64,000 nt of DNA from Rozella allomycis CSF55 (Eukaryota), in NCBI GenBank assembly GCA_000442015.1, contig KE560959.1:1-64000 (forward strand), given 5' to 3'. Under the pieces are notes generated by a model. That model saw only the letters and a program-made list of their open reading frames with translations, had not been told where the DNA came from and searched no databases. Numbering within the stretch: position 1 is the stretch's first letter; each line of letters starts with the position of its first letter. Below, in pieces: positions 8,945-62,720 of this stretch. The position numbers and the translations under genes were made by a program.

Positions 8945-8982
8945 AAATAAATCGATAACATGAAAGCTACCTAATTTTTTAT

Positions 8983-11367
8983 TTAATCTTCTTTAATAAT
9001 AGTTATTAAAGGCTTCTTTGGGGAACCGATTGCGACTTCTGGAATGAATTCTGCAGCTTGAATTGCATGATACTTTGCAATAGTGTCTTCTTCAAACGGA
9101 TCTTCCTTTATTCTTATTATTATTTCATGAATTTCTTGTACAAAATCATTATTTAAAAAGTTGTAAATGTCATCACCAAATCCGTTTAAAATGAACTTTA
9201 AAAGGCACAAAGAAGCCCTTCGAATATCAACGTTCGGTTCCATTTTAATGCAATCAGCACAAAATTTAGAAATATTAAATATCTCAAATCTAAGTGAAAA
9301 TGGCGACGCTTCGGCTATTGAGGAAAGTAATGATAATGCACTAGAAACAAGTCTACTAGAACGTTGTCGATCTATAAGTCGCAATAAAGTGGGAAGAATC
9401 ATGGTCACTATATAATTTGAACACAATGTGTTTACCATAACAGTCTACAGCAGATCCGAGCCTTTGAATAGTTTGTAATAATGATTCCCCCAGTCGAATT
9501 TGATATTCATCATCACCGGTGTATACATCCTCACTAATTTCAATATTTTCAAATTTCGATGCGTATTCAGTAAATATTTTTGGAATAATTTTGTCTGGAA
9601 ATAAATCAGTCAATGTGGACAAACATTTAACCGCGTTCAAATAGACAAAACTATCTTCGTCTTTCAAATGATGCAAAAAGGTATCAAAACATTGTAATAA
9701 AATTTCTTCATTTATCAAAAATTTGTGTTTTCTTATAAGAAGTTTTAATTTATAAAGGGCGGCGGCTCTGGCGGGCACATGTTCACTATTCAATTGCTTC
9801 ATACATTGCTTTAGTTCAGAGAAGAATGCCTCTTCTTCTTTTGATTTGTTCTCATTAATAAAATTATTGTACGATAAAAAATAGATTGAAATCAGTTTGT
9901 GTAGATTTTTGGCATCGCTATCAGTCAAATTAGATTCCAATTTTTCTTTCAACAAAATCACGGAATGCTGTTCCAAATCTTTTACTGATTCTGGATCTGA
10001 AAACATGATTGTGCACAACTCTAAAACTGTAGCCTTGATAGCCTCAGATTCTGTTTCACATTTAATATCCAATACGCTGATTGATAGATTTAACAGGTAA
10101 TTTGGATATTTTAGAAAACTTTCACCAAAATCGTCGACTAATCGGATTACTAGGTCCAATAAATCATTTCCTGGAGATTCAAGTAGCTCCATTACCATCT
10201 TGGATGTGACTGATATAATCAATTCCTCGCTTGAAAGCTCTTTCAAAAATGTGAAAAAAGTTTCATTGATATTTATTGCTTCCTGGGACTCTTTGGATGG
10301 TTCTAGACAAAGACCACCTCCAGGGCCAAGTTTGAATCCGTCCAAGGCTATTGGATTACGAATATAATTTAAAAAGAAAATCGACATCATTTCTAGTTCA
10401 TTATCCCTGATCAAAAGACTAAATATTTCTTTCATAATAGCCTTAAAATAAGATTTTGTTACATATGAATGAATTGCCATAACCGTTAATGAAATTACCA
10501 CTAATGTAAAAACAATGTTCCAAAATTACGGTTTTCGATTACAAAGTTGCGAAAAAATATATTGCTCTGTAATTGAAGCATTGTTTTCAATAAATTTAGA
10601 CTCTTTAAAAAATCTTTTTCCGATATGCAAATATCAAGAGATTTTGAATTGATAGTGTCTAGAATGCATAAAATGGGCCTGAAAGCCGATCGCAAAACTG
10701 TTTCGCCGTCCTCCGTACTCTTTCCATATAATTTTAGAGAGAGGTAACAGTAAAATTCTTTAACATATGCATCATGATCTGTTTGCAATTGACTTTGAAG
10801 CATTTGAGAGATGTACTGGAAATATTTCTAATAAAGGATTAACAGATTCCATACATTATAGTCCAATTTGGCTGGTCTAGTAAGAATTAAAGAACATATT
10901 TGATTCCAATTTTCTTTAGATTTCACCTTGCCTTGGTTCAAGAGAAACTCTACGATGGCAGGAAACCACCTCCTATCCATTAATTTGGTAGATAGACATT
11001 CCGAAAGCGTTACTTTGTTCTTGGTTGCACAAGACAAAAGTATCTGTAAAATAATATCCAATTTTCTGATGTTCGGTTCACTATGTTAAAAAACATACCT
11101 CACTTACCCGTCCAGTAAGTCAAGTATCAAATCTCTTTTAGATAATTTATCACTTTGAACACTCAATATAAGATTTAAATTAAAACTAAACAGCAGGTGG
11201 TCAAACTTTGAACTAATTTCCTTCAACTGACAAAACAGAGCTTTCTGAGAATCTAAATCTAAATCAAACAATTTTGAGCATATTTCTTTAACTTTTTTCA
11301 ATTCTTGGCGACATTCCTGAGGCTTTTTAGAAGCTAAAATAGTTTCGACCGTTGTCTGAGAAATCAT
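8983..11367 (-). CDS. RTP1: RTP1/TANGO6 (RNA Pol II nuclear import, HEAT repeats)
   Basis: VPARAAAL, HLKDEDSFVYLNAVKCLSTL, RLGESLLQTIQRLG, RRAS; first exon (MISQTT) joined by a 27-nt intron near 11081-11107. Confidence 0.8.
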
Positions 11368-11674
11368 GAAAAAGCCATCCAAAGCAAAGTCTTCTATAGA
11401 ATTCAATATCGAAGAAAGAGAGTAAAAAAATATATTATCTTTTATAAGAAAATATTTAAAATCAAAAAATATTGCGAATAGAAAGAAGAAACAAAAAAGA
11501 GAAGAGGCCAAGAAAAAACCGAAAAAAGCACCTCCATCGGAGGAAACAAAACAAAGATTAAAGAGTTTACGTGAGATCGCTAAAAAATTAGAGGAAGGAA
11601 ACGACGTTGATTTTCTGCAACAAACTGAAACAAGAACATATGAAGACGTTAAGGTTGAAGTTACAGCATTATGA
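11366..11674 (+). CDS. Small basic protein, RRP17/Nop25/NOL12-like (not in ORF track)
   Basis: ATG 11366; removing intron gtaaaaaaatatattatcttttataag (11422-11448) gives MKKPSKAKSSIEFNIEEREKYLKSKNIANRKKKQKREEAKKK...EDVKVEVTAL*, resembling the Nop25 'F....R..YL' motif. Confidence 0.55.
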
Positions 11675-11895
11675 TCACAAGTATTCTATATCGTGCTATT
11701 GTGTTTGAATGTGAAGATTTTGTTAAATAAACCCTTTAATTTGCATACGTATATACTATCGTATCAAAAATCGAACATGAAAGTTTTTAATATGCAAGTT
11801 TACACCGCTTAGCACAAGGAGTTAATTTAGTTATCAATTCATGTGATAAATTTTTGAAAGACATTTGTTTGTTTACATTACTGCATATTGCCATC

Positions 11896-14800
11896 ATGGA
11901 GGACATTGGCAATAAGCTCACAGGAGCCCTAGCGAGTAATGAAGTTAAACTAAAAACCATAAAAAATGATAAAATAAATAGAAAAAACAAAAAAATAACT
12001 GAAGCTGTCGACAGCATTGACAAATCGCTTAGAGACATCAAGGCGAGCAAAAAGCCGACCAAGGCATCCAATTTGATAAAATTTAATACGGAAAAACAGC
12101 CAGCTCAATTGTCATCGGTGTATTTGAAAGAAATAACAATGTCATTGGAGGACAGGTTAGCCTTATGCGGCAAACAATCGTCTATCCCTGAGATTGTTGA
12201 ATTTGTTGATATTGGAGAAAATTCTTGCCACAAGGAAACACAAGTGCCTGTTGATCAGCCTTTATTTCATGCCACACCATCAAAAGTCGTCTTTCAAAAT
12301 TTTGACCCGTTCAAAAAATATGAAGCCATGTTAAGTTTTAGGAATAGAGATAAGGTTGCCAGAAGATTAAAGGTAGAGTCTTTGGAAAGCCCATATTTTT
12401 CTGTTGTTCCACTAAAGTCTGGACCACCAAACGGAAGTAGAGTCGCCCCAGGGATGGAAATATGTTACATTCTTCAATTTAAACCTGAAGTGAAAAGAGA
12501 TTACTTTTGTCAAGTTGTATGTGTTACTGATCGTGAAAAGTTTGTTATACCTGTTGAAGCCAAAGGAAGTCGTGGGATATTGGACTTTCAAAATGAAATT
12601 AACTTTAGTGAATGTCCAGTTAAGTTTGTTAGCAATCATACATTGTATGTTAGAAACATTGGAAATGCACCTGCAAGAGTTATTATTGAAGCCGAAGAAC
12701 CTTTTTCAATCAGTCCATATCAAACAACGGTGATGCCTCAGCAAGCCGTTCAGTTTGAAGTTTCATTCTATCCCCAAGTATATAAGCTTCAAATTTAAAA
12801 CATAGTCTATTGGAAAATATGAAAAGTATATTTCCATTCTTTATGACACTGGTGAAAGTGTTATTGTCAAAGCTGTTGGTTCTGCTGAAGATGTAGCCGT
12901 CGGAAGTGAATCTGATATGTTAGTCATGAACAATACCTACATAGGTCTTGCTTCATCTCAAAATGTTCGCCTTTATAACAGGTCAAGAATTGTGGTAAAA
13001 ACTATTGCATGATTTTATAGTCTCGTTATCAATGGAAGCAGTTTCAAGATATGCAATCTGAATTGGAATACAAAAGACGGCAAATTGCAGAATTGAAGAG
13101 TGATGAAAAAGAAGGTCTTGTAAGAATGAGTGCGACAGAAAACTCTGGAGAACACTCACTTTTGGCGAAAGTTTATGAAAACAAGAAGCGTGAAATTGAG
13201 GAAGATTCATTACTTTATAAGGATCCTATTGTACAAATAGAACCAGTCCAAGGTGAAATATGGCCTAATTCATTTATTGATCTAACCGTTGTGTTCCAGC
13301 CTTCCAAGGCTTCAAAATATGTGAAGAATTTGTATCTGGATATGTCGGGTCGTCAAGATAGAATACCACTTATTGTTAAGGGAGTGGGAATAGGACCTAA
13401 AGCCAAGTTTGATTTCGATGTTCTTGACATTGAAGTTGTCTTCATTAACTCATCTCACATATATGAGCTATTACTTCAAAACAAAGGTGGAATTGACGTT
13501 CATTATTCGTTTGTAAAGTCTAATACGGCTTTTGGATCTTGTTTCCGTTTTGAACCAGTAGAAGGTGTTGTTGATTTTGCAAAATCTCTGCCTATCAAGG
13601 TATATTTTGAGCCTGACAAACTTGGTCAATTTCTTGAAGACTTTTATTTGCAAATGAGAGTAAATATTATGGATGTAGCTTATTGTAGGGATCTGATGAA
13701 ACGGTTAAACTAACGATCAGAGGTAATGTCGTTGGACCCACGTTTGAGTTTAATCACAATATCATTAATTTTGGAGTTGTATCTTTTGGATTCCCGTATG
13801 AGAAGAAGTGTCTTTTGAAGAATACGTCTGAGATCTACATGGATTATTGGTTAAGTATAAGTCCCAATTTGGACGAGGAAATTTCCTTTCATCCTGCCAA
13901 AAGCAGTTCAATACCACCAGGAGGAACACAAGAGATAACTGTGAAAATTCTTTCAAAACAACAGATAAAATATAATGCAGATTTGATCGTAAATGTTGAA
14001 GGAGTTGGTGAAGACATCTACAGAGTTCCTATTACAGCGGAGTCAATTATTCCAAATGTAAAGAATGTATTAATTGTTTAATAGGTTATTTTGAAAGATG
14101 AGTCCATTGAGCTTGGTGATTGTTATTTAGATTTCCCATATGAAAGTGAAATCATTCTTGTTAATCAGACGAATCTTCCTGCACGTTACAATTTAGTTTC
14201 AGAGGCAGAGATTGAAGATAATATGTATCATTTCAAAGCTAAATCCACTTCCGGGATTATTCAACCTGATTCTTCTATAGCACTGGGTTTCGAAGTAGTG
14301 TACAAGCAACTTGGATCTATTCAATTTTCACTGTTCATAGCAACTATGGGCCAGGAGAGCCATCCATTAGAGCTTTTAATTTCTGCGTTTGCATGTGGTC
14401 CCAAAGTGTCAGTCCCGATAACCAAAGTTGATTTTGGAAAGGTCAATGTACTTTCTCCTGTGCATTCTACTATCCAATTGATAAATGAGTCATTAATTCC
14501 AGCCAATTTTATTTGTGATTTGGGAAATCCATATTCAGTTTTTCAAGTTGAACCATCACGTGGATGTTTGTTGCCCAATGAGAAGCTAGATGTTGCAATA
14601 ACAGCCTTTTTAGATGATAATCTCAAATTCCAGGATACTCTTAAAGTTGGTATTCAGAATGGTAGTGTGACAAATGTTGTTTTGACAGCCAAAGGAAATG
14701 GTTCAACTATTGTGTTTGATGAAGATATAAAGAGAATCAGTTTTAATGACATTTTTACAAACAAAGTTGCTAGACGCGAGTTTTCTTTGGTGAATCAAGG

Positions 14801-17800
14801 AAGAAGAGCGCAGATTCTTACATGGACAATGGAGGAAGTGAGAGGGGCTATGAAGGATGTGGTTTCAAAGGGATCTAGTTTGTTCTCTGTTATTCCAAAT
14901 AGATTTCAAGTTAATCCCGGGGAGCATAAAGATGTTGTTATTGAAGCGTTTTCAACTGTTGCTATTGATAATTGTAAGCAAATGATATTGTGCAGTTCAT
15001 CCATTGACAAAGATCCATCAAAGCATTTGATTCTTGCTACAGAAGTGAGTGCCACATTTGTAAGACCTCTAGTTCATTTATCTACCGAGAGAATATACTT
15101 TTATTCAGAGCAGGGTGTCAATTCCAAACCAGGTGTATTGTCTGAGCCACTTGTATTGAAGAATGTTTCATCGCTTCCATTAGTAGTGAGTATGACAACT
15201 GCATCGCCGTTTTCTATTCTCCCGTATAAATCTGAATATATTTTACTTCCGAAAGAAGAAGAGAAGCTAAAGGTGTGTTTTGATCCTAATTTTATTGATA
15301 CCAAAGAGTCTTATGAGCAGTCTGGCAAGATTTTTGTAGCTTACAAGGATCATCCACAGAAAGACACGATTGAATTGATGGGCAAAGTGTGCTATCCGAA
15401 TATCTCCGTTTCTGTGAGTTCTTTGGATCTTGGGTGTGTTGAGCCAGCTATTGAAGCTAGGAAAAAGTTTACAATAACTAATACTGGAGTATTGCCTGTT
15501 GAATATGACTGGTCGTTTGAAATTGAAGAGGATTATGAAATCAATCCATTTGACGTGTTGCCTTTGCGAGGTAGTTTACCGCCTGATGAGTCTATTGATA
15601 TTGAGATTAGTTTTAGTACATTGAAAGTTGGAGAGTTTAAGTCTGTTGCGGTTTGCACAATCAAGGGAGGACCTGTTTATAATATACCGATTTCTGTTGA
15701 GACTTCGAATGCTAGTTATGAATTTGATACAAAGATTGTAGATTTTGGAAAAGTGTTGTATCTTGATGTAGCCGAGAGAGTCCTTTGTTTGATTAACAAT
15801 GGAAGACTGCCACTTCCATATAAATGTTATTTTCCGAGGAACAGTACACTTCCATATAGGACATTGATTAACCCAGAGAGTGGCGTGTTGATGCCATTTA
15901 AAGTTCAGAAATTCTCTGTAAGATTTTGTCCATGTTTGCCTGATGTGATTAATGGTTATTTTCTTGTGCAAATAGCGAATGATGAGCCTGTGAAAATAGG
16001 AATACAGGGGCAAGGGATGTTTTCGTTTATGAGATTTAATTTGCCCGCGAGCAATTCTAATGAGTATAGTGGGTTTATGGATGAAGCCAAGGAGATATTG
16101 AAACGGGAGGGATTGGATGAGCCAGAGGAGCAGGAGATTGAGACTGAGGCGATCCGACTGATGGCCAAGATGAAGGTTCTGGAGGTTACTAAAAACCCTG
16201 ATTTTCAAAAGAGTGTGAATATGCATTTGACTAGTTTTGGCAAATCATTGAGAAAGAAGAATATGACAGAGACGTCTATGGAGGGGCTAGGATTGAGTAA
16301 TTTGAATTTTATTGATTATGTGTGTGATTTTGGGAATGTGATAAAGGGCACTAGCAGGAAGAGGGTGTTCAAGGTGACGAATCATGGACCGTTGCCAATG
16401 TCTTTTTCTATGGACAAGAGTGTGTTGAATGGAACTAATTTTGTAGTTGAGCCTGACAAGGTGCGAGCGTTGGGGTCTATGGAGTCTACAGAGATTACGA
16501 TATCGTTTGTATCAAAGTCTACTGTTGAGGGCAAGTCTGAGGTGAAGATACCGATATCTATTGGCAATGGAACGGGTGTTAATTTGATTATAAAGGCGAA
16601 TGTAGCTGTGCCTAGTATTGAAGTTGGCACGACTGAACTGAATTTTGGGGATATAATGTATGGCCAGAGAAGAAGGAAGAGTTTTGAGTTGAGTAATAAG
16701 CATCTGGTGCCTTGTGAGTGGAGTTGTAGTTTGGTGTATTATGAGGGATCAGCCAAACAAAGGAAGAGAAAGAATGATGCTAGTTTGAGTGATTTTGAGA
16801 TATTTCCAGAATCGGGGGTGCTGCAGCCGAATGAGAATTGCGAGGTTAGTGTTCAGTTGACGCCATCGAAGCCCAAGCGATACGAGTATGAGTTGCAGTT
16901 GAAGATTGGCAATAATCCAAAGCCATTTGTTATTCCGGTTACTGGACTGGCGTACAAATCCATGATAAAGATTGAGCCGAACAATTTAAAGTTGCCGCCA
17001 GTGTTGCCGTATTCAGAGGGTGTGAGTGCAATGTTTTCTATAGAGAATGTGACTAACCATGCGTGTGAGGTTGTGTTGTTGGAGTTTGATAAGCAGTATA
17101 GAGAGGAGGATGAGATTATGAAAAAGACTGGAATGTTTAAAGAGGGTCCGTTGTATTTTCCGCCAAGAAGGCTGGGTGAGGGACTACCGCAGGAGATTAT
17201 AGATTTGCTGCCTGTTGAAAAGTCGATGGAGAATGTTAGTTGTGGGCAGAATGATGGGGTGTTGTTGGAGGAGGAGATTGGGAGAGTGCGAACCATGTCG
17301 TTTAGTGTGTCTAGACAGAATTCAGTGAGCAAGGGGCCGTCGCCAGTGAATGTGATTATCCATGGGCCGCCGTTGTCTGGAAAGACGTTGCAAGCGAAGA
17401 AGATTGCGGAAGAGTATGGGTTGAAGCATATTCATTTTGATGATATTGTTGATGAGTTATTAGATCGAGACAAGGAGAACAGGGAGAAGGAGAACAGGGA
17501 GAGGGAGAAAGAGAAGGAGAGGGATAGAGAAAAGGAGAAGGAGAAAGACTTTAACAAAGACAAAGACTCCAATAAAGACTTTAATAAAGAATCCATTAAA
17601 GATGTTAATAAAGATTCCAATGTAAAATTTGAGGTTGATAAGTTGCATACGTCATCTTCTAATGTGATTGGAGGGAATGTAGAGTTGGGAGAAAAGATAT
17701 ATCAAGTGTTGAGAGGCATAAAGAGTGAGAATGTAGTTGAAGAGACGAGTGTAGAGTTGAATGAGGGATTCCAAGTGTGTGAGTATCCATTACCGTTTGA

Positions 17801-20800
17801 TTTGATTGTTGAGATTTTGAATTTCTATTTGCAAAAGAATGATTTGAGTTGCAGTGGATTTGTGTTTGATGGGTTTGATAGCAAGTATATTCAAAGGCCG
17901 ATTCAGTTGTTTAAGGAGATAATGAAGTTGATACCTGATAAGAAGAATACGCATTTGATTGTGTTGAATGTTAACAAGGAGACGATTATAGAGAGAAGAG
18001 AGTTGAGAAAGCAGATGATTATTAAGAATGAGAAGATGTTGTTGAAGGAGTTGGAGGTGTTGAGTGAAGAAGAGTATGAGAGGATGAGTGAGAGTGAGAA
18101 GAAGGAATTTGATAGTAAAATGAAGGGGATTAAGAAGAGAATTCAAGAAGCGATGAGCAACAAGCGAGAAGAGAAGAGAGACAGAGAAAGAGAAGATAAA
18201 AGAGATAAAGAGGAAAAGAGGGATGATAAACTTGATAAAGATAAAGAAAAGTTGCTGATAAAGAAGGATAAAGAAAAGAATAAAATAAAGAATAATAAAA
18301 ACTTGAATAAATCAAAGATTGAATTGGATCAAATTGAAAATTCACAATCTATAATATTTGAAGACAAGGTTGGCATTTCATATGAATTATTCTTAAAAGT
18401 GAAGCAAGAAATATTAGAATTTATTAAAGAAGTAGAAAAGAATAAACAACAAAACCAAATTAATGTAAATGAAAACAAAAAGAAAAAGGCAAATCATCAT
18501 GAAGCAGTTTCACCCTTTGAAGAAACGTTGAAGGAAGAATTAATGATAAATATTCATGAGATTGAAGGAAATAAAAATGAGAAATTGATTTATGAAGAAA
18601 TTAAAAGTTTTCTGCCGCAAATTCATTTGAAGGTTGTTGAAAGTGAAGAGATTGTGTTGCCAGGGTTTCAGCCTGTTGATTTATTGGAGCAATCTTATGG
18701 GTTTGTTTCTAGTGGTGATGAATATAAGATTGATAAATCATTTCAAGTTCAAATTGAAGAATTACAAGAAGAGGGAGATAAGGGTGATAAAGGAGTTGAG
18801 AGGGTTGAGAAGGGAGATAAAACACTAGATAAGACACTAGATAAAACAATAGAGAAAGCAGTAGACAAGACACTAGATAAATCACAAACACAAACACTGG
18901 AAAAGACTACGTTGAATACTATTGCTAATAATTCATTTCAGAATACAAAGATAATAGTTGAAGAATCCACAAGTGAAAAGTTTAGATGGATTTTCAAACC
19001 AAAAGAGAAAAAGAATTTCACGTTAAAGTTGTTTGCTAGTAACATTGGAAGTTTTGAACAAATATTCCATTTCAAAGTGAATGCCAACAAGGAAACATTT
19101 GATTTAAAAGTTGTTGGTGTTTGTGAATATTCCTTTATAAGTTTTGACTACAAGAAGCTATTCACTAAATGGAGAAAGAATAGAGAAGATTCATCAATCA
19201 TTCAAAAAGAATACATTCTGCAATCTAATACATTTGAATTTGGTCCATTATCTATTAATAAACCACGAGAGAAATCAATTGAAAGAAATCTGGATAACAG
19301 AGCGACTATAAAGATTTATAATCCATCAAATTCTATTGTTAAAATATTGTTTTGTTTTAGATATGATTTGAAGCAGGAATTATTTCAGTTGGAGCCAAAT
19401 CAAATGGAGTTGAAGCCGAAAGAAGAATTGGATTTGAATATTTGGGCGTTTCCTAAATCACCGGGAAAGTTTGATGATTCTTTGTTGTTTCTTATTAAAG
19501 ATAATCCTGAAGTGTTTTTTATTAAATTGACATGTTTTGGTGTCAAACCTGAACTAGAAGTTGACAAAAAGGTAAGAGTTTTAGAGGGAGGTTACAAATA
19601 GGTAATCAAAGTGTTTAAAGGTTACAAATAGGTAATCATAGTGTTTGAAGGTTAACAAAGGTAATTAATTCTCTTTAAGTCTCAACTAGGTAATTAATTC
19701 ATTTCACCTCTCAAATAGGTGGTTCAGTTTGATAGGTTATTGCTGCAAAAGGTTGATGTGAGAGAATTAAAGATTAGANCCACTATAATGTCTGCTGGAT
19801 GGAAACTAGTGGGACATGAATTGCTTGGTGAAGAATTTGAAGTGTTTCCTGTTGAAGGGGCAATTGAATATGGAAAAGAAGCGACTGTGCAAATTAAATT
19901 TAAAGCAATGAAACCAATTGTTATTAAAAGAGCATTAAGATTAGAAGTTTATGACTTGGAGAGAATAGGTAAATTAAGAGTTGTAAGGTTATATAGGTAA
20001 TTAACGAGTTGTAAGATTATACTAGGTGATGCTTACACTTCTTATTCAATGTAGGGAATCCGTTGCAGTCAGATAATATTATTGTTACTGCTGAAGCTTA
20101 TGACATTTCAGTTGACATTCACTTTCCTAAAGGATGTGAAGGTGGATTAGATTTTGGTGTATTAAAAGTATTTGAAGAAATGAAACAAACAATCACACTC
20201 AAAAATAAAGGTAACAAAGAGTATTTAGTTCTTTCTAGGTAAACTTAATTCTCTTTAATTCTTTCTAGGTAAAATTAAATCTTAAACTCTATGAAAGGGA
20301 AATATGAAACAGGGTTTAGATTTGTGTTTGATAAGGATCAAAGTGAATTCATAACAATTAATCCAACATCTGGACTATTAATTCCATCAGAGAAAACATA
20401 TCCAATCCAAGTCTTGTTTAAAGGAAACAGAGAAATCTATTTAAAAGATTGTTTGAATCTAAAGTGTTTAATAACAGAGCCATCAACCAATGAAACAATC
20501 GTCACAATTCCAATCAAAATAAACGCAAAATCTGTTTTCAGCAAATACTCTATAATCCCAACAAGAGATTTAAACTTTGGATCTCTAGTGTATGGCTCCA
20601 AGGGAAACAGACAAATAATCATTGAAAATTTGGGTGAATACGATTTCAAGTTTAGTTTGATTAGAGGTGAAATAGATTCCCTAGCTGCATTCCCCTTTCC
20701 ACGAACTGGCAGCAAAACTAGAATGAATGCGGGTGGATCGTTTATGAAGAAATCGCACAGACAGTCTTCAAATTCACCGCCGCCACTAAGATCTAATTAT

Positions 20801-23800
20801 CGCAAGGAAGGAATAAAGAATGAGTCGCAAGTTGTGTCGAGTCCTTTTTCATTTTCAGTGTCTAGTGGGTCTATATCGCCTGGCAGTCGACAAATTGTAA
20901 ATATTGAGTTTCATCCAGAGAATCCGGGGAATTTTGAAGAAATTATTAATATTGACATTTCTGACAAGGGTTCCAACAGCGAAGGTAACATATGAGATTT
21001 AGAAGTGAACATAGGTAATATATGAGATTAGTATTTAAAATAGGTAATAAAGAAGCTTTAAATGTGAACACAGGTAATTTTAATTGTTCCAACTAACTGC
21101 AAGGAAGCGAGTATAAATTGATGGGAGAGTGCTGCATGCCAGGTATTAATAATACAGACTATTCATCCATCTTTGAAGAAAATTCCGTTAGAAAGAGAAT
21201 AGATTCACTATTTAACCAATCGTTTGTTTACATTGAAGATGAAAAGGTGTTTCATTTTGGATCTTTTCTTGTTGGTCAAATTGTTCAGTCTAGAATAAAG
21301 ATTAGCAATCCATTCAAAGTTTCTTGTGAAGTTTTGATTAATGTTAAACCGAGAAGTAAATCTAAAAATGATAGCAATGATTTTGCATTTGATGTTGAGC
21401 CAAAGAAGATTTTATTGCCCAGTCATGAGCACAGGTAATCAATTGGTTATAAGGTATAATATAGGTAATCAAATGGTTTAAATGTAATTAAGGTAACTGT
21501 TTAATTCTCTTCATTATCATTAGGTAACTGTTTAATTCTTTCATTATCATTAGGTAACTGTTTAACCTTCTTTAATAATAGGTTTGTTACGTTGTCTTTT
21601 CATCCATTGGCTATTCAAACTTATCAAGGAATCTTTGAAGCATTGGTAGAGAATATTCCAGAATCAAAATCAAAATCATTATTGTTTGAATTGAGAGGAG
21701 AAGGTACTCTACCAAGAATAACAATAGAAAAACCAACTTTAAAATCCAAGAATGGAAATCNCAACGTTAAAATCCAAGAATGGAAATCCATTACTAAAAT
21801 TTAAGAAAACATTAATTGGAAATTTACAGCAAATGTCAATAATAATTAAAAATGATGGAATAATCCCATGCAAAATAAAATTTGAATTTATTTCTTCTGA
21901 ATTCACAGACTTTGAAATGGATCAACTAGTTCCACTGATCCAACTATCTCCAATGGAAATAAAAACATTCAATATCAAATTTAAACCAACAATTGTTAGA
22001 AAATATGAAAGTGAAATTAAACTAAAAGTTTATGATAATCATTTTGAAGATTCATACATCCAAATCCAAGCAGAAGGATACATGGATGACATTTCAGTTG
22101 AAGATTCATCCGATGACACTTGCAATGAAAATGAAATTGTGTTGAGAGATTGTTTGGTTGATAAGAAACGCATAGAGTCGTTTGTTCTTCGTAACAATAC
22201 TTCAAATTATATTAAATGCACGCTTGGTCAGTGTAATGAATTTGTTTTGAGTCCATCTGTTTTTCATATTAGGCCGAGAGATATTAAAAAGGTTTTTGTG
22301 CAATTTCATCCAAAGCAGCCTTGTAGAGTTTCTGCTGTTGTTAATTGTAGTTCTAGTAGGATAAAGTATAATGTTAATTTGCCTCCTGATTTTGAATGGG
22401 ACAACAGCAGAGATAGAGATAGAGATTTTACAAGAGAGATTAAAGACGTAAAAGAAGTGAGGTCTAAACAAGGCTTGAGTGAACCTTCTTATAGTGTTAT
22501 TGAAAATTCAAATTTTACTCTTCCACTTTCTATTCAAGCTATTTCTGATTATGGTGATTTTGAACTTGAAACAAATTCAATTCAATTTAAAACTACTTTA
22601 ATGTTTCAATCTAGAGTATTTTCATTTCCTATAAGAAATACTGGCAAAATTTCTATTCCATTTGAATTCTATTTCACTCTTGATGATTCCACAATGACTA
22701 ATTCTTCTACAATTAATTCAGCTGTGAATCCATTTACTGTTAATCCATCAAATGGAACTATTTTAGCTGGTGAATCTTTATTAATTACAATCAAATTCCA
22801 ACCAATAGAAGTTGATGATTATTCTCTCTTTCTTCATTTAAAATTATTAAATCTTTTACCTGGCAAATCTTATCCAATAATTCCAATAAGAGGAAAAAGT
22901 TTGAGACCACTTTGCCACTTTGAATTGGAAACTAAAGATTATTTATTCGACAGCATTCAAAATTTAAGTAATTCTTTGGATCCAAATACCCGGGTTATTG
23001 AAATTGAAACTATAGGAATTAAAAAAGTAAATTTACAGATTAGATCTATAATTTAGATTATTAAAAATTTTTATATTTTGAATCCAACTAGCATCACTTA
23101 TGACTTTGAATGGGTTAAAGAAGGAAACGAACAAGGCAAATTGAAATGTTTAACAAGGCAGGGAACAATTGTTGGTGGCAAAAAGAGTGAAATAATATTT
23201 GAATATTCACCCGACAATATCGATGTATTAGAAACATTTTGGAAATTTAAAATTCCATCTCAAAATATTCAAATTCCATTCATGATTTTATGTAGATCTT
23301 TGGAACCTTCAATCTACTTTGATAAAACAAGTGTTAATTTCAAATCTATTCTAGTTGATTGTCCAGTTAAGGAATCATTGAATCTTGTCAACCAAGAAAA
23401 CATTCCATTTTATTTTTCATTCAATGATATTCTAAATGAAAATTCATCTGTTATTCAAATCAATCCGAATTCTGGGTTCATTGCACCTAAATCTGAACAA
23501 ATTATCACTGTTATGTTTCAACCGAGATCTGAAAAGATTTATAATTACAATTTAATCTGTAACGTTAGAAAGAAACCAAATCCACTCGTTATCAATATTA
23601 AAGGGGAGGGGTACTTGATCCATGAAAAAGTTTACTGTCAGAATGTTGATAATTCGCTTTATTTACTTTCAAACTCTGATTTTAATTTAATTGATTTTGG
23701 TAGAGTGTTTTTAAATGCTAAAAGTTCTAAAAGAATCACAATCAAAAATGATGGCAGATTTCCTTTTGATTTCTCTTGGAAAATTAAAGGAAACAAATCT

Positions 23801-26431
23801 AACTGTATTTCTATCAACCCGGAATTCGGTAAAGTAGGGAAAGATGAGATTGTTAATTGTGATATTGATTTCTCACCAACTGTTCATGTGAATCTCAAAA
23901 ATGTAACAGCTGTTTGTCAAATAAGCAATGGAAGGCAATACACTCTCTCATTTGAAGGTATTGGCGCTAAACCTAATCTATTAATATCTGAAGATTTCCA
24001 TGATTTCGGTCCTTGTTTCATATTCAGACCTGGCATGAAACCACTAGAACATCGATTCAAAGTTACAAACAAGGATGAAAAGGAAATCTCACTGGATGTT
24101 TCAATTTCAAATTCATCTGCTTTTGAAATAAATGCATTTGGTCCACCTTGTATAGCTCCCAACGCATCCACATTTATTACTGTATTGTTCTTTCCAAGAG
24201 AAGCAACGAAATACCAAGAATATTTAACTGTTGATATTAATGGACTGTCTAAAACTAAATTAACAGTCTCTGGTGAAGGAGTTGACATGAATTTGGATTT
24301 GGCGCATTCCGATCATAAAAGCATTGGATTCGGTGCCGTTAGAGTTGGCCACGTTGTCACTAAAACAATAAAACTAGTCAACAAGAGTATCATCCCTGTT
24401 AAATTCAATCTCGGTACTACATCTGTTATTGAAAAATTGTTGAAGAATTTTGTCACCTTTTCGCAAACACAGGATATTACTATTAGACCCAAAGGGTATT
24501 TCAATCTAGAGTTCAAGTTTATTCCAACTGTGCGGGTTCAGCCATTCTTTGAAGAAATCCATTTCGAGTGTCCAGGGTATTCAAAGCCGTTGTTTGCTGT
24601 GCATGGTGCGTGTCATGGCATTGAAGTGAAGATTGAAAACCAGAATATATCGTTTGGCGCTGTTGTATTAAACAGTTCCAATGCACGCAAAGTTCAGTTG
24701 AGAAATGTTGGCGATATTGGTGTAAAGTTTAAATGGGATGTTTCAAGGTTCTATCCACACTTTAGCATCACTCCATCGGAAGGATACATTTCATCTGGAA
24801 TGGAAGTGCCTCTAGAATTCACATTTCATCCCAAAGAATTGGACCACGATATTAGATTAGATTCCATTCCTTGTTTTATTGAAGGTGCTAATCCGCTGAC
24901 TATTAATCTATCTGGTGTTTGTATCCCGCCAACTATTCAAAGTGAAGTTTTGAAATTTAGTACAGCGGTTAGAGAATCTGATGTTAAACAGATTCCATTA
25001 ACTAACAAATATCCATTCACTTGGATGGTTAAACCGGTTATTGATAACGAGTTTTGGTCTTGTTTGGAATCATTGGAAATAGAAAGTGGCCAAACAAAGC
25101 AGCTGGAAATTGTGTACAAGCCTCTGCAAATGACAAACGATGAACACAAACATGAAGGTTCTATTTTCATTCCCCTGCCTGATGGCTCTGGAATGCTGTT
25201 TAGGTTGCTGGGTACTGCTGATAAGCCAACTGCCGTAGAATCACACACTTTGGAAATACCTTGCAAGACTCATCACGTTCAATCTCTTAAAGTTCAAAAC
25301 TGGCTGAAATCCTCACAAAGATTCAAAGTTGTCATTGAACAAGCGAAAACAGATCTATCAGTTCTACTCAAAGGCCATTCTTACATTGATATTCCGCCAT
25401 CAGCAGCCTACGATTACAAATTGAGCTATTTCGCTTACAAGGAGGGGCTATTCAACGTTAAAGTTACTTTTAGAAATGAAGATACAGGAGAATACTTGTT
25501 TCACACACTGCAATTCAAATCAACGCCGCCAGCTGTTTCTGCTGTATATGAAATGTCAACTATAGCCAGGCAACCTGTTCTGCAAGAGATTTCTATTCTC
25601 AATCCACTGCCAATAACAGTGTCGTTCAATGTTACTTGCACACATCCAGATGTAAACTGCCCCTCTCAATTCAATATCGCACCAAGGTAATCCAAGCATA
25701 TTAAGATTAATAGATCGGAAGGTATTTGCACGGTTGAATTTCTGCCACTTCAAGCAAAAGAATCGTCCACGCGCGTCACTTTATCTTCTAATGAACTGGG
25801 TGTCTACAACTACGACCTAAAGCTGATCGCCACTCCAGCTGGCCCTGAAAGAAGTATCCAATTCAAAGTATCACTAGGTGCCTCCCAAACTCAAAGCTTC
25901 AGATTCACAAGCTATGCTAAATCGAAAATTGAATATTTATGCAAAATTGATAGTCCAGACTTAACTTGTGAAAAATCTGTCATTGCTCCGCCAGGTAATC
26001 AAATGAGTTTAAGTAAATTAGCTCTTGCTTCGGGCGGCGTTGAAGTTGTTATCGATGTTGTCTACGAACCTTCAAAATTAGGTGATACCAAGTCCTTTTT
26101 ATCTGTCTCCTCGCCCCAAGGTGGTGATTATATCTGTCCACTGATTGGACACTGTATCGCTCCTAAACCACAAGGTCCGTTTACTATAAAGGCAGGCTCT
26201 TTTGCGTCCATTCCTTTTAAAAATGTTTCTGCGCAGACGGCAAATTTCATCATGACAATTGACAATGTAAATTTCACTGTAAAGAACCAGGAATCTATCG
26301 GGTCAAAAAAGATGGTGCACATCAATGTCAATTATAAAGTTGTCAATTCGAAAGCGCCAAAGACGGCTAAAATGGTTGTTAGTCAGGTGGGGTCGAATGT
26401 TCAATGGATTTACTATCTTAAAGGGATTTAA
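11896..26431 (+). CDS. HYDIN: HYDIN, axonemal central-pair protein (multi-exon, roughly 4,500 aa)
   Basis: Many ASH-like domains; SRVAPGMEICYILQFKP; adenylate-kinase-like GPPLSGKT; AEAYDISVDIHFPKG; terminal WIYYLKG. Confidence 0.95.
19572..19718 (+). other. Compound intron 1 of HYDIN: 5 abutting GT..AG units (30,30,29,29,29 nt)
   Basis: Units start at 19572, 19602, 19632, 19661, 19690; removal joins ...EVDKK|VVQFDRLLL. Confidence 0.9.
19969..20054 (+). other. Compound intron 2 of HYDIN: 3 units (28,29,29 nt)
   Basis: Units start at 19969, 19997, 20026; removal gives ERIGNPLQSDNIIVTAEAYD. Confidence 0.88.
20211..20297 (+). other. Compound intron 3 of HYDIN: 3 units (28,30,29 nt)
   Basis: Units start at 20211, 20239, 20269; removal gives LKNKGKYETGF. 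Confidence 0.9.
20985..21103 (+). other. Compound intron 4 of HYDIN: 4 units (30,29,30,30 nt)
   Basis: Units start at 20985, 21015, 21044, 21074; removal gives SEGSEYKLMGECCMPG. Confidence 0.9.
21435..21581 (+). other. Compound intron 5 of HYDIN: 5 units (30,28,31,30,28 nt)
   Basis: Units start at 21435, 21465, 21493, 21524, 21554; removal gives PSHEHRFVTLSFHP. Confidence 0.9.
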
Positions 26432-26541
26432 TAAAGTTTCAACTCATTCAATTTTCTACTAAAAATAATATTTTAATTGATTAAAATTTTATAGTTGTTC
26501 AAATATTTTATTACCACAAGACGATAGGTGAGATCGTATCA

Positions 26542-27765
26542 TCAAAATTCTTCATCCCCTTTCGGAAATGAATTAGACGTGGGGAATTCTCTAATGTCAC
26601 CTTGGTTTCTATCATAGTTTGATGAATATCTTCCTATATGCTGCACAATATTTGGAACTATCAAATACTGCGTCCATTTATTGAAATTCGCAATGTCATC
26701 CAATAGCATATCAACAGCTTTTAGTTTTATCATTCGGTTTGTATCCAGCTGATTGGAATAGTAAAATAAGTTTTCAGATATTGCCTTGAGATGTCTCTTA
26801 GGGTATACTTGTCCTACCAAAACTGACAGAGAGTTTGGGATCTTTAACAATCCGGGTGTAGTTCTCTGTGGAATTAAAGCTTGTTTAGATATTAAATACA
26901 TCAATGAATATATCACCAAAATAAAATATAGCCATATGCCAAGATAGTTATGCCATTGTTTTCTTCCGTAAATTTTCCTTATACCCAACGTAATGGCAGC
27001 CGATAAACAAACTGAAATTAATAGCATCACACCAAGATCATCCAAAGACCATCCATCAAAAATATCAGGGTAAAACAGTTTCAAAGCATACCAATTGGGA
27101 TCGCCAACATTAAGATCTTTAACGGACTCGACTATTCTTTCATAAAAATCTTTAGAGACTATCGCGTCATCTTGCAAAACCAAAAGATAATCTGAAGAAA
27201 GTTTCTCGTATGCATAGCGGGCAACAGAAGCATAATCAAAGATTTCATGTCGATACCATTTTCTATGATTGGAACCTTTCCAATCATCAAATGAACCTAT
27301 TTTAAATATCTCGTCCATCACATTGATAATGTTCCCGCGTGTTTCCAAATTATAGTCTCTGCCATTTACAATCGGCAGTATATTAAGGGCTTTGTTGTTC
27401 ACCAGATAATTATTGAAAGAGCTATTTCTGTCATTATTAAACAAAATGACATTAACTTTGGCATCTTCAGGTATTCTTGACAGCAGGTACCCCATTGTTC
27501 TGATTAAATACATTGATGTTCTTCTCTGCTTTGTTATAACTATAACGTCTAATAAAGTATTTGTATATAAAGGTCTTTTGGGTAGATCATGAAGGAATTT
27601 TAAAGAATTCTGGTATGATATTGTTTCCCGCTCTTCTATTTCAGACATTGGAGTCAAATAGAAAGCACTGTATTTACAATTGCGACCCAGATAGAAAGAT
27701 ATTGAAAACAGAAGAGAGTGAATAGTCAGTATTAAAGCATAAAAAGATTGACTTTTCCTTTTCAT
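26542..27765 (-). CDS. PGAP4/TMEM246-like GT-A glycosyltransferase
   Basis: N-terminal TM; YLLVLQDDA; LKLFYP; two internal TMs; IVPNIVQHIG; intronless 407 aa. Confidence 0.7.
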   Translation of the reverse strand: MKRKSQSFYALILTIHSLLFSISFYLGRNCKYSAFYLTPMSEIEERETISYQNSLKFLHDLPKRPLYTNTLLDVIVITKQRRTSMYLIRTMGYLLSRIPEDAKVNVILFNNDRNSSFNNYLVNNKALNILPIVNGRDYNLETRGNIINVMDEIFKIGSFDDWKGSNHRKWYRHEIFDYASVARYAYEKLSSDYLLVLQDDAIVSKDFYERIVESVKDLNVGDPNWYALKLFYPDIFDGWSLDDLGVMLLISVCLSAAITLGIRKIYGRKQWHNYLGIWLYFILVIYSLMYLISKQALIPQRTTPGLLKIPNSLSVLVGQVYPKRHLKAISENLFYYSNQLDTNRMIKLKAVDMLLDDIANFNKWTQYLIVPNIVQHIGRYSSNYDRNQGDIREFPTSNSFPKGDEEF

Positions 27766-28717: not shown

Positions 28718-30525
28718 CTACTCTAGTAACCGCCAGGAGAAATTTATCATCTTCCAAATAGCCTTTCTTGGAAGCGTGCCAAAGAGCTTAATTTCTTCTG
28801 GATCTGTTTTGGAGTCCGCTAACAAAACCTTAACAACTTCGGCATGACCGTTCTCAGAGGCACATCTAATAGCATAATTACCCCAGGCACTTGGATTAAC
28901 TCTAGAATCCTTCAGCAAAGCTTTCACAATTTCAACATGACCATACTCAGCAGCACGAACAATAGATTCATTGTACCTGGCTCCAGGATCCACTCTAGCA
29001 TCAGTTAACAGAACTTTGATGACTTCCAAATGACCGTTCCTGGATGCATGTCTAAGAGCATAACTCCTTCGTACACTCGGGTCTATTTTAGGATGTGTTA
29101 GCAAAACTTTAACAACTTCATAATGACCATTGGCAGAGGCACGCCTAATAGCATAGTTTCTTCTTACACCTGGATCTACTCTAGGGTCTCCAAGCAGAGT
29201 TTTAACAATTTCGACATGGCCAAACTCAGAAGAATGCATAATAGATTCATTGTACCAGGCCCCAGGATCCTCTCTAGCGTCTGCTAACAAAGTTTTAATG
29301 ACTTCCAAGTGACCTTCCTTGGAAGCATACCTACTAGCACAATTGACACCGAAATTTGTATCTACTCTAGGGTCCGCTAGCAAAAGCTTAAGAACTTCTG
29401 CATGACCGGCTTCAGAGGCATTACCAATAGCGTAAGTTGGATTCACTCTCGAATCTTGTAGCAAAATTTTAACAATTTCCACATGACCGTTTTCAGCGGC
29501 GCGTATAATGGAATAATCGTCTCGAGCGTCAGGCTCTACTCTAGGATCTGCCAGTAAAAGTTTAACGACTTCTGCATGGTTGTTCTCGCAAGCACGTCGA
29601 AAAGCATAATTGCATTCTTGCGTTGGATCTACTCTCGGGTCTGTTAGCAAAATCTTGACGACTCCGGCATATCCGTCCTCTGAAGCAACTTGAATGGCAA
29701 AATTTTCACCTGCGCTTGGATCTACTCTGGGATCTTCAAGCAAAATTTTAATAACTTCCGTGTGATTGTTCTGGCAAGCATCCTGAATAGCAATATTTTC
29801 CCAAACACTGGGATCTACTCTAGAATCATCCAACAACAATTTAACAACATGGGCATGGCCATTCATAGAAGAATATCGAATAGCATAATTGTCCTCTAAA
29901 GTGGGGTCGACTCTAGAATCGGCCAACAACATTCTAACAACTTCCACGTGGCCATTTTTAGAAGCATACTGAATAGCAGAATTTTCTCTTGCACTTGGAT
30001 CTACTGTAGCATGTTTCAACAAAATTTGAACAATTTCTCCATGGCCGTTTTCTGAAGCCAGCTTGATAGCTTCATTATCACATGCGCCAGGATCAACAAT
30101 TGGCAAAATAGGTTTCGTTTCATACTTTTGATTACACCTTCTAATCTGCCTATCATCGATCATGAGTGATACGTATTCTATGATTCCATACTGGCACACA
30201 AACTGAAAAGCATAGTTTGCACTTTGCGGAGAATTGGATTTTCCTACTAGAATGTTCAGAAAATTGACCAGCCTTTCACATATTTCGCTATTATGTAGGA
30301 TTTCAGTGCAAGTATCTATGCTGAACAATATGCCACATCTATGGTCGATTATTTTTTGAATAATATATGGGCATTTCCACGAGCAACAAGTTTCTGGAGA
30401 TTGATGAAGGACGGAATCCAAGCAAAGTGAACGAAGCCAGCAGATGCTCTTGAGATTTTTTTCACGTCATTTAGACTTAAATGCGACAAAATTATGTGCC
30501 AAACCTCAAACGGGAAGTGTTCCAT
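28718..30525 (-). CDS. N-terminal F-box + ~14 ankyrin repeats (apparent frameshift near 30350)
   Basis: MEHFPFEVWHIILSHLSLNDV is F-box-like (ATG 30525); 34-aa repeats DPRVDPSA..NYAIR.AS.NGH.EVVK.LL in ORF 28718-30421. Confidence 0.8.
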
Positions 30526-38215: not shown

Positions 38216-39134
38216 TCAAAGATCTATTTCTTTGGTTAAGATGAGGGTATTTATAGTGTCAATTTTGCTACTTCGTCCAGATGTTTCAGAATATATGCAC
38301 GAATCAGTGAAATTTAACTTAATTTTTCGTTTTGGCTTATTATGTTTTCTTTGAGTACTCGAGTAGCATCTCGTCAAATGGTTATCCGCTAATCTTGTCG
38401 TTAAAATGTTTTTACGGTAACTTGTTGATTTTTGAGGAAAGGACTCCACCCTACGGAGATACCTGGAATTTTGAGAAAGACTGTTCCAATTTGATTGAAG
38501 CGAGCTATGTAATTTATTCATAGTTTTGAGTAGTGCATCAGATAATGTTACGTTACATTTTTCAAGTTGGAATCGAAGTTTCGTTTCAGTTGCAACCATT
38601 GAATTTGCTTCTTCAAATAGTCGAGATGTCAAGCTTTCTAGCTCGCTCATAATTTCATCTCTTTCCAAAACAGCTTTGGAAGCCTCTTGAATCTTCCTCA
38701 TTGCATAAACAATATGTTACCGCTGCATCATATAATTGAGTTATCCGATCCATTTCATTTTGGAGCTTTTGCAAGTCATACTTTGTATCGTTTTTAGGAA
38801 ATCGATTTTTAGAAAGAAAAGGGATTATGCAAGTGTACAATGACCCTCGGCTATGTTCACTTGAAGTAATCTTGTCACTTTCCAACACGCTCATTTCCTT
38901 TTCATATTCCATACATTTTCTTTCATATAATTGTCTAAGATTTCTTTCGTTTTCTAAAATAACGCTAGTTTCTAAATCTACAAACATAGAAAAGGAATTT
39001 GAAAATCGACTGGCTAGTATTTTCTGGTTTCAATAAGCTATTCGCGTTACTTTGTATTCAGTAAACTCTGTTCCATAAATATCCTTACTACCGTCAATTA
39101 TTTTTTCGGTCGCTTCTTTAATTGCAATTTGCAT
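38216..39134 (-). CDS. Sec2/Rabin8-type Rab GEF coiled-coil protein
   Basis: ELESLTSRLFEEANSMVA; ATG 39134 joined in frame by a 27-nt intron to MFVDLE. Confidence 0.75.
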
Positions 39135-39202
39135 AATTTAATCTCCGTACCATTCAAAATATAATTTTGATAAAAAAAGCTTCTAAAATGAACGTCATTT
39201 AT

Positions 39203-41508: not shown

Positions 41509-42966
41509 CTATATAAAAAATTGCAAAAGAGCCCCCTGTAGCAAAAGAAATAAAGTAATCCAATTGGCGAGTTGCATTGAATAAGCTTTGTTAAATGGAG
41601 GGTATACACAAATGCCATCCAATGCTCCCATCGAAAATATCAATATTATTCCAAAAAATTGAGCCGAAGTATTCAACAAAAAGGAGCTGGTTGCTTCGTC
41701 TATATCGTTGAAAGATTTTGCAGCTAATTCAAATCCACTTGGCATCATTGCGGAAAGAGATCCCCCAAGAAAGATGCTAAAAATTGTATCCAAATATATT
41801 TTACATAGCTAGGACCACGTATTCGAAAGAAAGAAATTCTAACGCTATGTTGTAGAAAGTGTATGAAAGTATGGCCAAGATATATAGCCAGCGACAAGCA
41901 GATGCATACTTTTTAGTTCTATCCAAATAATTTCCCGCAATTAATATAAATATCATGCCAACTCCAATGAACCCTAATCCGAGAAAGCCAACGTCGAACT
42001 ATATATGTTAGAATTTAAGTCTTCATACCTCTCTGCTTGGATATATTGGCACAATCATTTGCGCCATCAATGTAGTTACGCTATATTGAACACCAATATT
42101 TATCCCGTAAGCGACAAACAAGGCCGCAAATCTAGCATTTTTCATCGCCTTAAAAATCAGTGATCCTACTCCATAATTCCTTTTAATCGATTCGACAGCA
42201 TAAAATGGAGAATCAGATTCAAAAAACATAACAATCAAGGCGAAGATTACACAGCAAAATATAAATTGAATAAGAAAATAGCGACTTATATCTGCTGCTT
42301 GGTTATTTGAAGAAATTGCCAATGGTGTAATGAAGAATCTATATTCCTGATATAATAATTTTGTTACGCTAATAGCACTCCCATAGTGTTACAATTAACC
42401 GCGATACTTGTGGCCAAACTTTGAAGCTTCTCCGGAAACCAGCAACTAGCCAATTTTGAAGGTAAACCTTTCATTGAAATGAATATATATTACCGAGAAT
42501 AAATCCCTGTGCTATCGCGGAAACGCATTGCCCGATTAGACAAATATTGTACTCGTTTGACCAGTACCACCTGATAAATGTCCCCAGAGCATTTAAAAAC
42601 GCGCCTATACAAATTCCTAGAAATTATTTTCAGTGAAAAACATTACCTAATTACGACCGCAATAATTTTCTTACCTGCTTTGATTCCATTAGAGTTGGAA
42701 GCATCCACTGGATAAACCTTTGCTCTTTGAAACCAGGATCTAATTTTCCTATCATTTTCAACAGTCCACAAGCACGGGAACATCATAAACGGATATATGA
42801 TCATGTACACGAGCGAAAAGAGATTTATGTACAGTATATCCGACTTGCCAAAGTGTGTTTGGAATACATAGGTGAGAGGTGCAAAGGTGTTCCACTGAAA
42901 AGAATTTGAAGCAGACAAGAGACCGAACAGAGCCAGCATCTGCCATTTTTTAAAGGAATTTTTCAT
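41509..42966 (-). CDS. MFS transporter, FLVCR/SLC49 family
   Basis: SASNSFQWNTFAP, IGQCVSAIAQGF, PSKLASCWFP, GFELAA, SAQFFGI. Confidence 0.8.
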
Positions 42967-43251: not shown

Positions 43252-43959
43252 ATGCCACCCAAAAAAGAAAAGAAAAAGGCAAAATCAGCCTCCAAATCAT
43301 CCGGTAACAATCTCGCACACTACGCAAAGACAATGCCCCTACCGCGCAAGACCGCCTCTTGCAAGCAGAAACACAAATAGAAACACTACAACGCGAGCTC
43401 GGTAAATAACTTCCCAACAATGAAAAGAATTTCGTGACGAGCTAATAATGCGACTAAAGACGCGCAACGAAGAGATGCGGCGGCAGGTGANGACGCGCAA
43501 CGAAGAGATGCGGCTTCAAGTGAAGACGATGGAGACGTTTGTGGAGAGCAAGGACCAGGACCGCATAGATGTAGCTGCTGGTATGATATGAGGTGATTTA
43601 TAGTAGATATGAATCGGCAGTACCAGTTTATGCAGCATGAGATGCTTGAGCGGGTGAATAGACTGGAGGATAAGATTGAAGAGTTGAATAGGAATATTGA
43701 GGATAGGGATTGTAAGATTAAAGAGTGGGAGAGTCGGTTTGAGAGTATGGTCAAGGAGAAGGATGATATAATATATGAAAAGGATGAAAAATTGGAGTAC
43801 ATGTCGCAAGAGTTTGAGAGTATGTTGCATGATACGCTGGATAGGATGACTAGAAAGTTGGAGCATGTTAGTATGAGGTGGAAGGAGGATGTTGATTTGA
43901 CAGAGACTAACCAGAGAAAGTTGGCGAGAGATTTCAATTTTGCTCGATTAAAGATATAA
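43252..43959 (+). CDS. CCDC153/DRC12-like flagellar coiled-coil protein
   Basis: MPPKKEKKK start; DMNRQYQFMQ; MSQEFESMLHDTL; N-junction artefact at 43491. Confidence 0.65.
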
Positions 43960-62718: not shown

Positions 62719-62720
62719 NC

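Follow-up and report, generated by a model that had tools for sequence, protein, structure and literature searches.

How are introns of up to 147 nt removed in a gene whose single introns measure 26-30 nt, and how could such introns have arisen? The question is raised by a stretch of 64,000 nt from the genome of the fungus-like parasite Rozella allomycis CSF55 (assembly GCA_000442015.1, contig KE560959.1, positions 1 to 64,000 of the forward strand; hereafter the window), in which five consecutive introns of the gene for the flagellar protein HYDIN consist entirely of tandem arrays of complete micro-introns. The explanation that, with modest confidence, we consider best for the whole of the evidence is that a multi-unit intron cassette was copied among neighbouring positions of the gene, that its size changed through duplication of whole units, and that the resulting chains are cleared from the transcript by successive excisions of single units.

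Tandem micro-introns in the HYDIN gene

The genetic code of the window is the standard one, and its G+C content is about 34%. An exon of 1829 aa at 14085-19571 contains HYDIN/CFAP65 Ig-like domains together with the Hydin adenylate-kinase-like domain, Hydin_ADK (Pfam PF22544, PF24507, PF17213), and the gene was recognized as HYDIN by the presence of both domain types and by its collinearity with known HYDINs in alignments. Its best full-length relatives are the HYDINs of chytrids, at 34-35% identity. The gene and its parts, with the arrays numbered A1 to A5, are the following.

12106..26431, + strand: HYDIN gene, approximate coding extent supported by homology (tblastn with the chytrid HYDIN P0002)
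12778-12805, 12995-13020, 13660-13688, 14058-14084, 23027-23056 and 25687-25713, + strand: six single HYDIN introns, each of 26-30 nt
19572-19718, + strand: array A1, 147 nt, five units of 30, 30, 29, 29 and 29 nt, phase 0
19969-20054, + strand: array A2, 86 nt, three units of 28, 29 and 29 nt, phase 1, the third unit starting with GTGA
20211-20297, + strand: array A3, 87 nt, three units of 28, 30 and 29 nt, phase 1
20985-21103, + strand: array A4, 119 nt, four units of 30, 29, 30 and 30 nt, phase 1
21435-21581, + strand: array A5, 147 nt, five units of 30, 28, 31, 30 and 28 nt, phase 2
19719-19968, 20055-20210, 20298-20984 and 21104-21434, + strand: four HYDIN exons between the arrays, which, spliced and translated, have 50% identity to chytrid HYDINs

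The sequence-only reading that preceded this analysis had divided five HYDIN introns of 147, 86, 87, 119 and 147 nt into 5, 3, 3, 4 and 5 abutting units. This observation of tandem arrays of complete micro-introns is confirmed: with the bounds recomputed, the arrays comprise 20 units of 28-31 nt. The terminal motifs were recounted with the same outcome as before, namely GTAA at the start of 19 of the 20 units and GTGA at the remaining one (A2 unit 3), AG at the end of all 20, and AG/GT (the slash marks a border) at 15 of 15 internal junctions, where an acceptor directly abuts the next donor; the one internal junction of a sixth array, A6, described below, has the same form. The exons upstream of the arrays end in AG and the unit that follows begins with GTAA or GTGA, so that, judged from the sequence alone, excision of a unit would regenerate a usable donor. 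Chains of at least three units were obtained in none of 100 composition-preserving shuffles of the window, counting both strands, and Tandem Repeats Finder reported arrays with a period of 28-30 at the HYDIN arrays and otherwise solely at 21729-21807. The units differ in composition and age: the first three units of A1 are purine-rich and its last two pyrimidine-rich, while units 3 and 4 of A5 are 96% identical. Between two convergent genes, 21 nt at 8982-9002 (+) match the last unit of A5 at all positions but one (blastn-short, E 6e-5), be it by chance or through kinship.

The claim that removal of whole arrays restores HYDIN also held. With all five arrays removed, the product of 751 aa is collinear with chytrid HYDINs at 50% identity, and the alignment is gapless at four of the five array junctions, with a gap of two residues near A4; at A1, removal yields ...ELEVDKK/VVQFD..., again collinear with chytrid HYDIN. 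An early stop was found in 90 of the 91 possible products that keep at least one unit.

Could the arrays have been produced by assembly or amplification? Such an origin would be in line with the single Ns that lie beside a spurious 28-nt duplication at 21729-21790, and with the lack of any single contig bridging units 3 and 4 of A5. Nevertheless, we regard it as extremely improbable, since the arrays are covered by Logan contigs of all three DNA runs, from three studies, against which the window was compared, and one contig of 4100 nt covers 18793-21533 without a break (2.7 kb, A1-A4), its differences within the arrays being indels of 1-2 nt only. Moreover, the units differ from one another, unlike the products of collapse or stutter, and the HYDIN reading frame needs the arrays to be removed. 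The sequence-only reading had left the arrays to be checked at the level of reads; the contigs of the three runs carry them, but in the run with the 4100-nt contig the assembly breaks at 21533/21543, and the copy number of A5 units 3 and 4 is unbridged.

In A3, one contig of run X2 is longer by 28 letters, as after 20272 it returns to 20254 by way of nine letters of other sequence. The addition has the size of one unit and fits a change in whole-unit copy number, and A3 possibly has a four-unit allele. An insertion of the same size further downstream is of another nature.

21729..21790, + strand: duplication of 28 nt of coding sequence, on both sides of the N at 21761, an assembly artefact outside the array system

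This duplication, which breaks the HYDIN frame in the window, is considered an artefact because the 28 letters are absent at 21739 in three of three DNA runs. The single N at 19779 in a HYDIN exon replaces more sequence, with contigs adding three letters (AAT or ATC) and keeping the frame. In run X1, 24+9 extra letters occur near 22420-22447. Runs X1 and X2 each include contigs at at least 99%, at 95-99% and at 90-95% identity to positions 9000-27000 of the window, and the material that was sequenced may therefore have contained divergent haplotypes or strains.

The intron density of the gene is very uneven, because the intron-free exon of 5.5 kb (14085-19571, +) lies immediately upstream of the five arrays. 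This exon contains a low-complexity insert rich in Lys, Glu and Asp (17470-18900, +), with coding tandem repeats of period 12-36, in which run X4 has an in-frame addition of 39 letters at 18793-18810. No public model of this HYDIN was found in a search among proteins of 400-2000 aa, nor any related locus in two metagenome scans with HYDIN exon 4 and the environmental homologue P0008 as queries.

Splice signals and the removal of the arrays

To compare the units with ordinary introns, 59 single introns of the window were picked by hand, because automatic intron finders were too noisy; they start with GTA, end with AG and bridge open reading frames, and their flanks were ignored in the choice. 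Their lengths are 24-31 nt, with a mean of 27.5 nt, and unitary introns above 31 nt are lacking among these 59 curated singles of the 64-kb window. A strict scan of the window for further arrays gave one more.

42617..42674, - strand: array A6, in a gene whose product is a multi-pass membrane protein; two units (28 and 30 nt) with 53% identity

The frame of this gene is open only if exactly 58 nt are removed, and after this exact removal three homologues align without gaps across the junction. The public model of the gene (P0159) has instead an intron of 70 nt (42605-42674, -) and lacks four residues (ICIG) that are kept in the three homologues; it also omits a later stretch of the gene. The single exons of the gene gave no Pfam family, and its likeness to a membrane transporter is an impression only. 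A relaxed scan, accepting any GT and a score of at least 3.5 on the splice-signal matrix described below, gave seven extra chains of two units where about 10.5 are expected from shuffles, and these were treated as chance.

Several apparent long introns were set aside after inspection. Those at 49708-49878 and 44948-45113 each resolve cleanly into two micro-introns and a small exon; that at 43442-43623 can be parsed into two introns, but with poor units starting with GTC or GTT; that at 62002-62142 has a single 33-nt candidate and a weak parse; and those at 39010-39206 and 43943-44079 could not be parsed and resemble gene borders. All intervening sequences above 31 nt in the window are therefore chains of units. 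The earlier statement that all other introns are single and of 25-31 nt stands for the 59 singles, with the range widened to 24-31 nt, but it overlooked the two-unit array A6.

Do the units behave as introns? A position weight matrix (PWM) of the splice signals was built from the 59 single introns, each single being scored with itself left out. The mean score is 10.5 for the array units and 11.4 for the singles, compared with -2.6 for 264 GT..AG decoys from the 5.5-kb exon. Among homologous units, the GTAA and AG signals show 0 changes in 66 chances and the interiors 67 in 264 (Fisher p=4e-8, a rough value), and in the clearest unit families alone the counts are 0 of 42 and 35 of 168 (p=1.8e-4, equally rough), which bears out the earlier claim that interiors have diverged while termini were kept. 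These comparisons suggest that, most likely, each unit keeps its donor, its acceptor and a permitted length under purifying selection. The PWM scores, the conservation of the signals and the lack of unitary introns above 31 nt in the survey together argue that the internal sites are used.

If the internal sites were not used, the outermost GT and AG would react once, and the sites between them would be relics of recent tandem duplication. Several facts are compatible with such one-step excision: several units are recent copies, with identities of 83-96%; longer introns are no obstacle to splicing in most eukaryotes; the public model of the A6 gene has its 70-nt intron; and the RNA run X10 has no HYDIN sequence and hence nothing that contradicts it. 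In microsporidia, which are close relatives of Rozella, longer introns are even the better spliced ones (PMC6349667). However, sites without use would be expected to decay, or to be removed by selection because they act as decoys, yet the internal sites have 0 changes in 66 chances, compared with 25% in the interiors. Unit lengths have also remained at 28-31 nt, and A1 units 1-3 compared with units 4-5, like the A6 pair (53%), are at background similarity and yet keep their signals. None of the 59 singles is a unitary intron above 31 nt, and the 70-nt model drops four residues retained by three homologues. Predicted folds, moreover, bring the outer ends of the arrays together no more than shuffles do (z -1.7 to +2.1). 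On balance, one-step excision appears unlikely.

Folding was also considered in its own right. None of the six arrays is unusually stable relative to shuffles (z = -1.34, -1.36, -1.70, +2.12, +0.19 and -1.16), and the idea of a looping-out hairpin between purine-rich and pyrimidine-rich units was dropped, as the folds are not more stable than those of shuffles.

Fungal spliceosomes tend to pair nearest splice sites. Given this tendency, the resemblance of the units to ordinary introns and their conserved signals, we think it likely that the chains are cleared stepwise, one unit at a time. The interpretation given in the sequence-only reading is in this respect partly supported; that the spliceosome might be restricted to introns of about 30 nt is the more hypothetical part of it. 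The steps would have to be successive, because, where an acceptor and the next donor adjoin, occupation of the one precludes simultaneous occupation of the other. In Lipomyces a comparable preference has been described, in that of the possible internal introns the smallest is taken first (PMC7138796).

A looser scheme, in which any donor may join any downstream acceptor, so that units leave singly, in blocks or all together and give the same mRNA, deserves consideration along with strict unit-by-unit clearing. Every donor-acceptor pairing leaves intact units, and all routes would thus be productive; in L. starkeyi one complex intron is removed in either one reaction or two (PMC7138796). The homology between arrays presented below lies in multi-unit blocks, as expected from the copying of multi-unit pieces, and blocks excised whole could be the mobile form. 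The tight range of the single introns (24-31 nt), on the other hand, suggests that pairings of at least 58 nt are disfavoured. We see this combinatorial scheme as a rather unlikely one, although with the present data it is indistinguishable from the explanation that we favour.

Origin of the arrays and other features of the window

The exons around the arrays differ from those around single introns. The flanks have the form AG/.../G in six of six arrays but in only 3 of the 59 singles (p=1e-6), and a direct repeat spans both borders, of 3-5 nt in six of six arrays, while in singles it reaches at least 3 nt in 7 of 59 and is of 2 nt or less in 52 of 59. Each of the six array segments thus lies between short direct repeats spaced by one period, as is characteristic of microhomology-mediated tandem duplication. 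Because stepwise splicing needs no such flanks, we read this rule as a mark of origin and not of function.

The HYDIN arrays are also related to one another. Units 2-5 of A1 align with units 1-4 of A5 over 115 columns at 74% identity, a score reached by none of 4000 pseudo-arrays made from real introns in each of two null models; the score of A1 with A3 was reached by 0 of 4000 and 1 of 4000 in the two nulls. At the five HYDIN sites the cassette is 70-79% alike between sites, and units run from purine-rich to pyrimidine-rich in all five arrays (rho 0.6, permutation p 0.0018), an order that we attribute to shared descent. Within the window this family is confined to A1 to A5, and neither A6 nor any of the 59 singles is related to it. 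The similarity of lone units was discarded as a sign of kinship, since identities of at least 80% occur in 3 of 158 cross-array pairs and in 9 of 2891 pairs involving real singles; only the multi-unit alignments are convincing for homology between arrays. Related intron sequence is therefore found at different positions of one gene whose exons are not duplicated, as in same-gene intron duplication. As the exons on either side of the arrays belong to ancient HYDIN sequence present in single copy, it would be the intron cassette, and not a segment of the gene, that was copied among five sites within 2 kb, and such copying accounts for the clustering in consecutive introns. The array paralogy, the flank rule and the sixth array had all been missed by the sequence-only reading.

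From the architecture, its presence in independent DNA, the conserved signals, the flank rule and the homology between arrays, we infer as follows by which mechanisms units were duplicated and copied and in what order and number the splicing steps occur. A multi-unit cassette, purine-rich at its 5' end and pyrimidine-rich at its 3' end, would have been copied to five neighbouring positions of HYDIN, where the number of units may then have changed through tandem duplication of whole units. Duplication would occur only where exon ends repeat intron ends (...AG/GT...AG/G...), since the direct repeats of 3-5 nt, exactly one period apart, would be the substrate for microhomology-mediated tandem duplication. 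Its product would be complete micro-introns in a chain with zero-length exons between them, from which single units would be excised successively until the exons are joined, each excision recreating a normal AG/GTAA or AG/G junction.

Several points weigh against this explanation. The array units are longer than the singles (29.3 vs 27.5 nt, p=1e-6) and, for this reason, cannot be taken as drawn at random from ordinary introns; low PWM scores were obtained for the last units of A2 and A4 (3.6 and 5.3). The units share descent, so that the counts behind the Fisher tests are not fully independent, and A5 units 3 and 4, being very young duplicates (96%), are uninformative on selection. The factors for neighbouring units would clash where a donor abuts an acceptor, and all units could not be recognized simultaneously. 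If the cassette had moved by reverse splicing, it would have required occasional excision as one multi-unit piece. The kinship is also uneven, as the similarity of A1 with A4 (p ~0.005) and with A2 (p ~0.011) is nominally significant only, as is that of A4 with A5, and in five further array pairs it is not significant. Finally, the RNA run X10 gave only low-complexity matches of 18-24 nt and nothing from the HYDIN gene, and the intron survey covers a single window of 64 kb.

Could the arrays instead have grown by the insertion of intron copies at AG/G(T) proto-splice sites, including the AG/GT border of an intron already present? In-place tandem duplication would then be replaced by reverse splicing or by an introner-like element, and the five HYDIN introns would be recent gains. 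The location of six of six arrays at AG/.../G sites, rare among singles (3 of 59), is in keeping with this route, as are the sequence family that five consecutive introns share and that was not found in the other introns of the window, and the presence of adjacent units that are unrelated (the A6 pair at 53%, A2 unit 3, A4 unit 4). Same-gene intron duplications in fungi, half of which have been ascribed to possible within-transcript transposition (PMC3609843), offer a precedent. Most adjacent units, however, are more closely related to each other than to any other unit, a sign of local duplication, and the arrays lack unusually stable secondary structure; no terminal repeats beyond the microhomology of 3-5 nt were noted, although no specific search for them was made. 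We hold growth by insertion to be possible but doubtful.

The remainder of the window includes the following features.

56257-58107, - strand: exportin-1/CRM1 exon of 617 aa, 100% identical to a Rozella allomycis CSF55 protein
28814-29435, 29682-30058 and 63021-63244: tandem DNA repeats of ankyrin genes, period 93 or 279

The genes with these repeats, which encode ankyrin repeats, lie at 28721-30466 (-) and 62688-63494 (+). The CNOT1 gene, with exons at 44965-46320 and 47803-49707 (-), contains a gap of 200 N (47265-47464).

Relation to known systems and meaning of the arrays

The literature searched, to which the 2013 genome paper and its supplements did not belong, gave no description of tandem, abutting or zero-length micro-intron arrays, and to this extent agrees with the earlier remark that the architecture is not known to have been described in a micro-intron genome. 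Ciliates, microsporidia and dicyemids, but not Rozella, are mentioned in a 2026 survey devoted to very short introns, and the available part of its text lacks the words "tandem" and "recursive" (PMC13644364). For the length of Rozella introns, only a density of 2.5 introns per kb was found, supplements that possibly list lengths being outside the search.

The principle itself is not new, as recursive splicing through zero-length exons, in Drosophila and S. pombe, and intron duplication within a gene were already known. Recursive splicing at zero-nucleotide exons, or ratchet points, has been described in Drosophila and humans (bioRxiv 10.1101/006163), and there, too, AG/GT abuts inside an intervening sequence and removal of the upstream part recreates a donor. 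Introns with ratchet points are, however, very long, have one or a few such points and are otherwise non-repetitive, whereas the Rozella arrays measure 58-147 nt and consist wholly of two to five introns of standard size that would derive from duplication; moreover, splicing at ratchet points is a known process, while the Rozella arrays are known here from DNA. In S. pombe, spliceosome profiling revealed two zero-length exons, one of them in a 336-nt intron that hosts a snoRNA (bioRxiv 10.1101/226894). These cases likewise have a fungal spliceosome using an internal 3' splice site that adjoins a 5' splice site, with sites noted as conserved, but they involve neither tandem repeats nor micro-introns and do not occur as a cluster within one gene.

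Stwintrons and "stwintrons sensu lato" of the Ascomycota are removed by consecutive U2 reactions, the smallest intron first, and sister stwintrons propagate (PMC7138796, PMC9024468). They resemble the arrays in being complex intervening sequences of which some families have multiplied within a genome. In a stwintron, though, the internal intron is nested and interrupts a splice element of the external one, whereas the Rozella units are complete and abutting and no donor, branch or acceptor element is interrupted; sister stwintrons also show no bias in insertion site, in contrast to the arrays, which all lie at AG/.../G. Same-gene intron duplications in fungi place related introns at different positions without duplicated exons (PMC3609843), but they concern single introns, usually near-identical, and not a multi-unit cassette 70-79% alike at five sites of one gene. 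Introner-like elements have hundreds of copies and stable folds (PMC3609843), and extra-stable secondary structure is found in none of the six arrays.

In microhomology-mediated tandem duplication, a segment between short direct repeats duplicates and can expand or collapse (PMC8639346, PMC13167724, bioRxiv 10.64898/2026.02.28.708716). Its action on the Rozella arrays is suggested by the junction repeats of 3-5 nt and by one possible copy-number variant. A different matter is the kind of segment involved: to our knowledge, this process has not been described for whole introns. What distinguishes the Rozella locus from these systems is that a whole intervening sequence is a tandem array of micro-introns of standard size, copied in blocks among sites and tied to a flank rule.

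The arrays have consequences for gene annotation, intron length and intron gain. Gene predictors can mis-splice them, of which the public model of the A6 gene appears to be an example. As the sole intervening sequences above 31 nt in 64 kb, they bear on whether the spliceosomes of micro-intron genomes may have an upper limit of intron length. With regard to intron gain, five neighbouring introns share a multi-unit family and exon ends mimic intron ends at all arrays, and duplication of whole units would yield new complete introns without coding cost. A more far-reaching proposal, which we put forward as speculative and rather improbable, is that of a self-propagating complex intron, in which a multi-unit piece would sometimes be excised, reinserted at an AG/G close by in the transcript or gene that it came from and resized by whole units through the microhomology of its junctions, while a length-restricted spliceosome would clear it unit by unit. 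If true, it would be a natural case of intron transposition within a gene combined with obligatory recursive splicing in a micro-intron genome.

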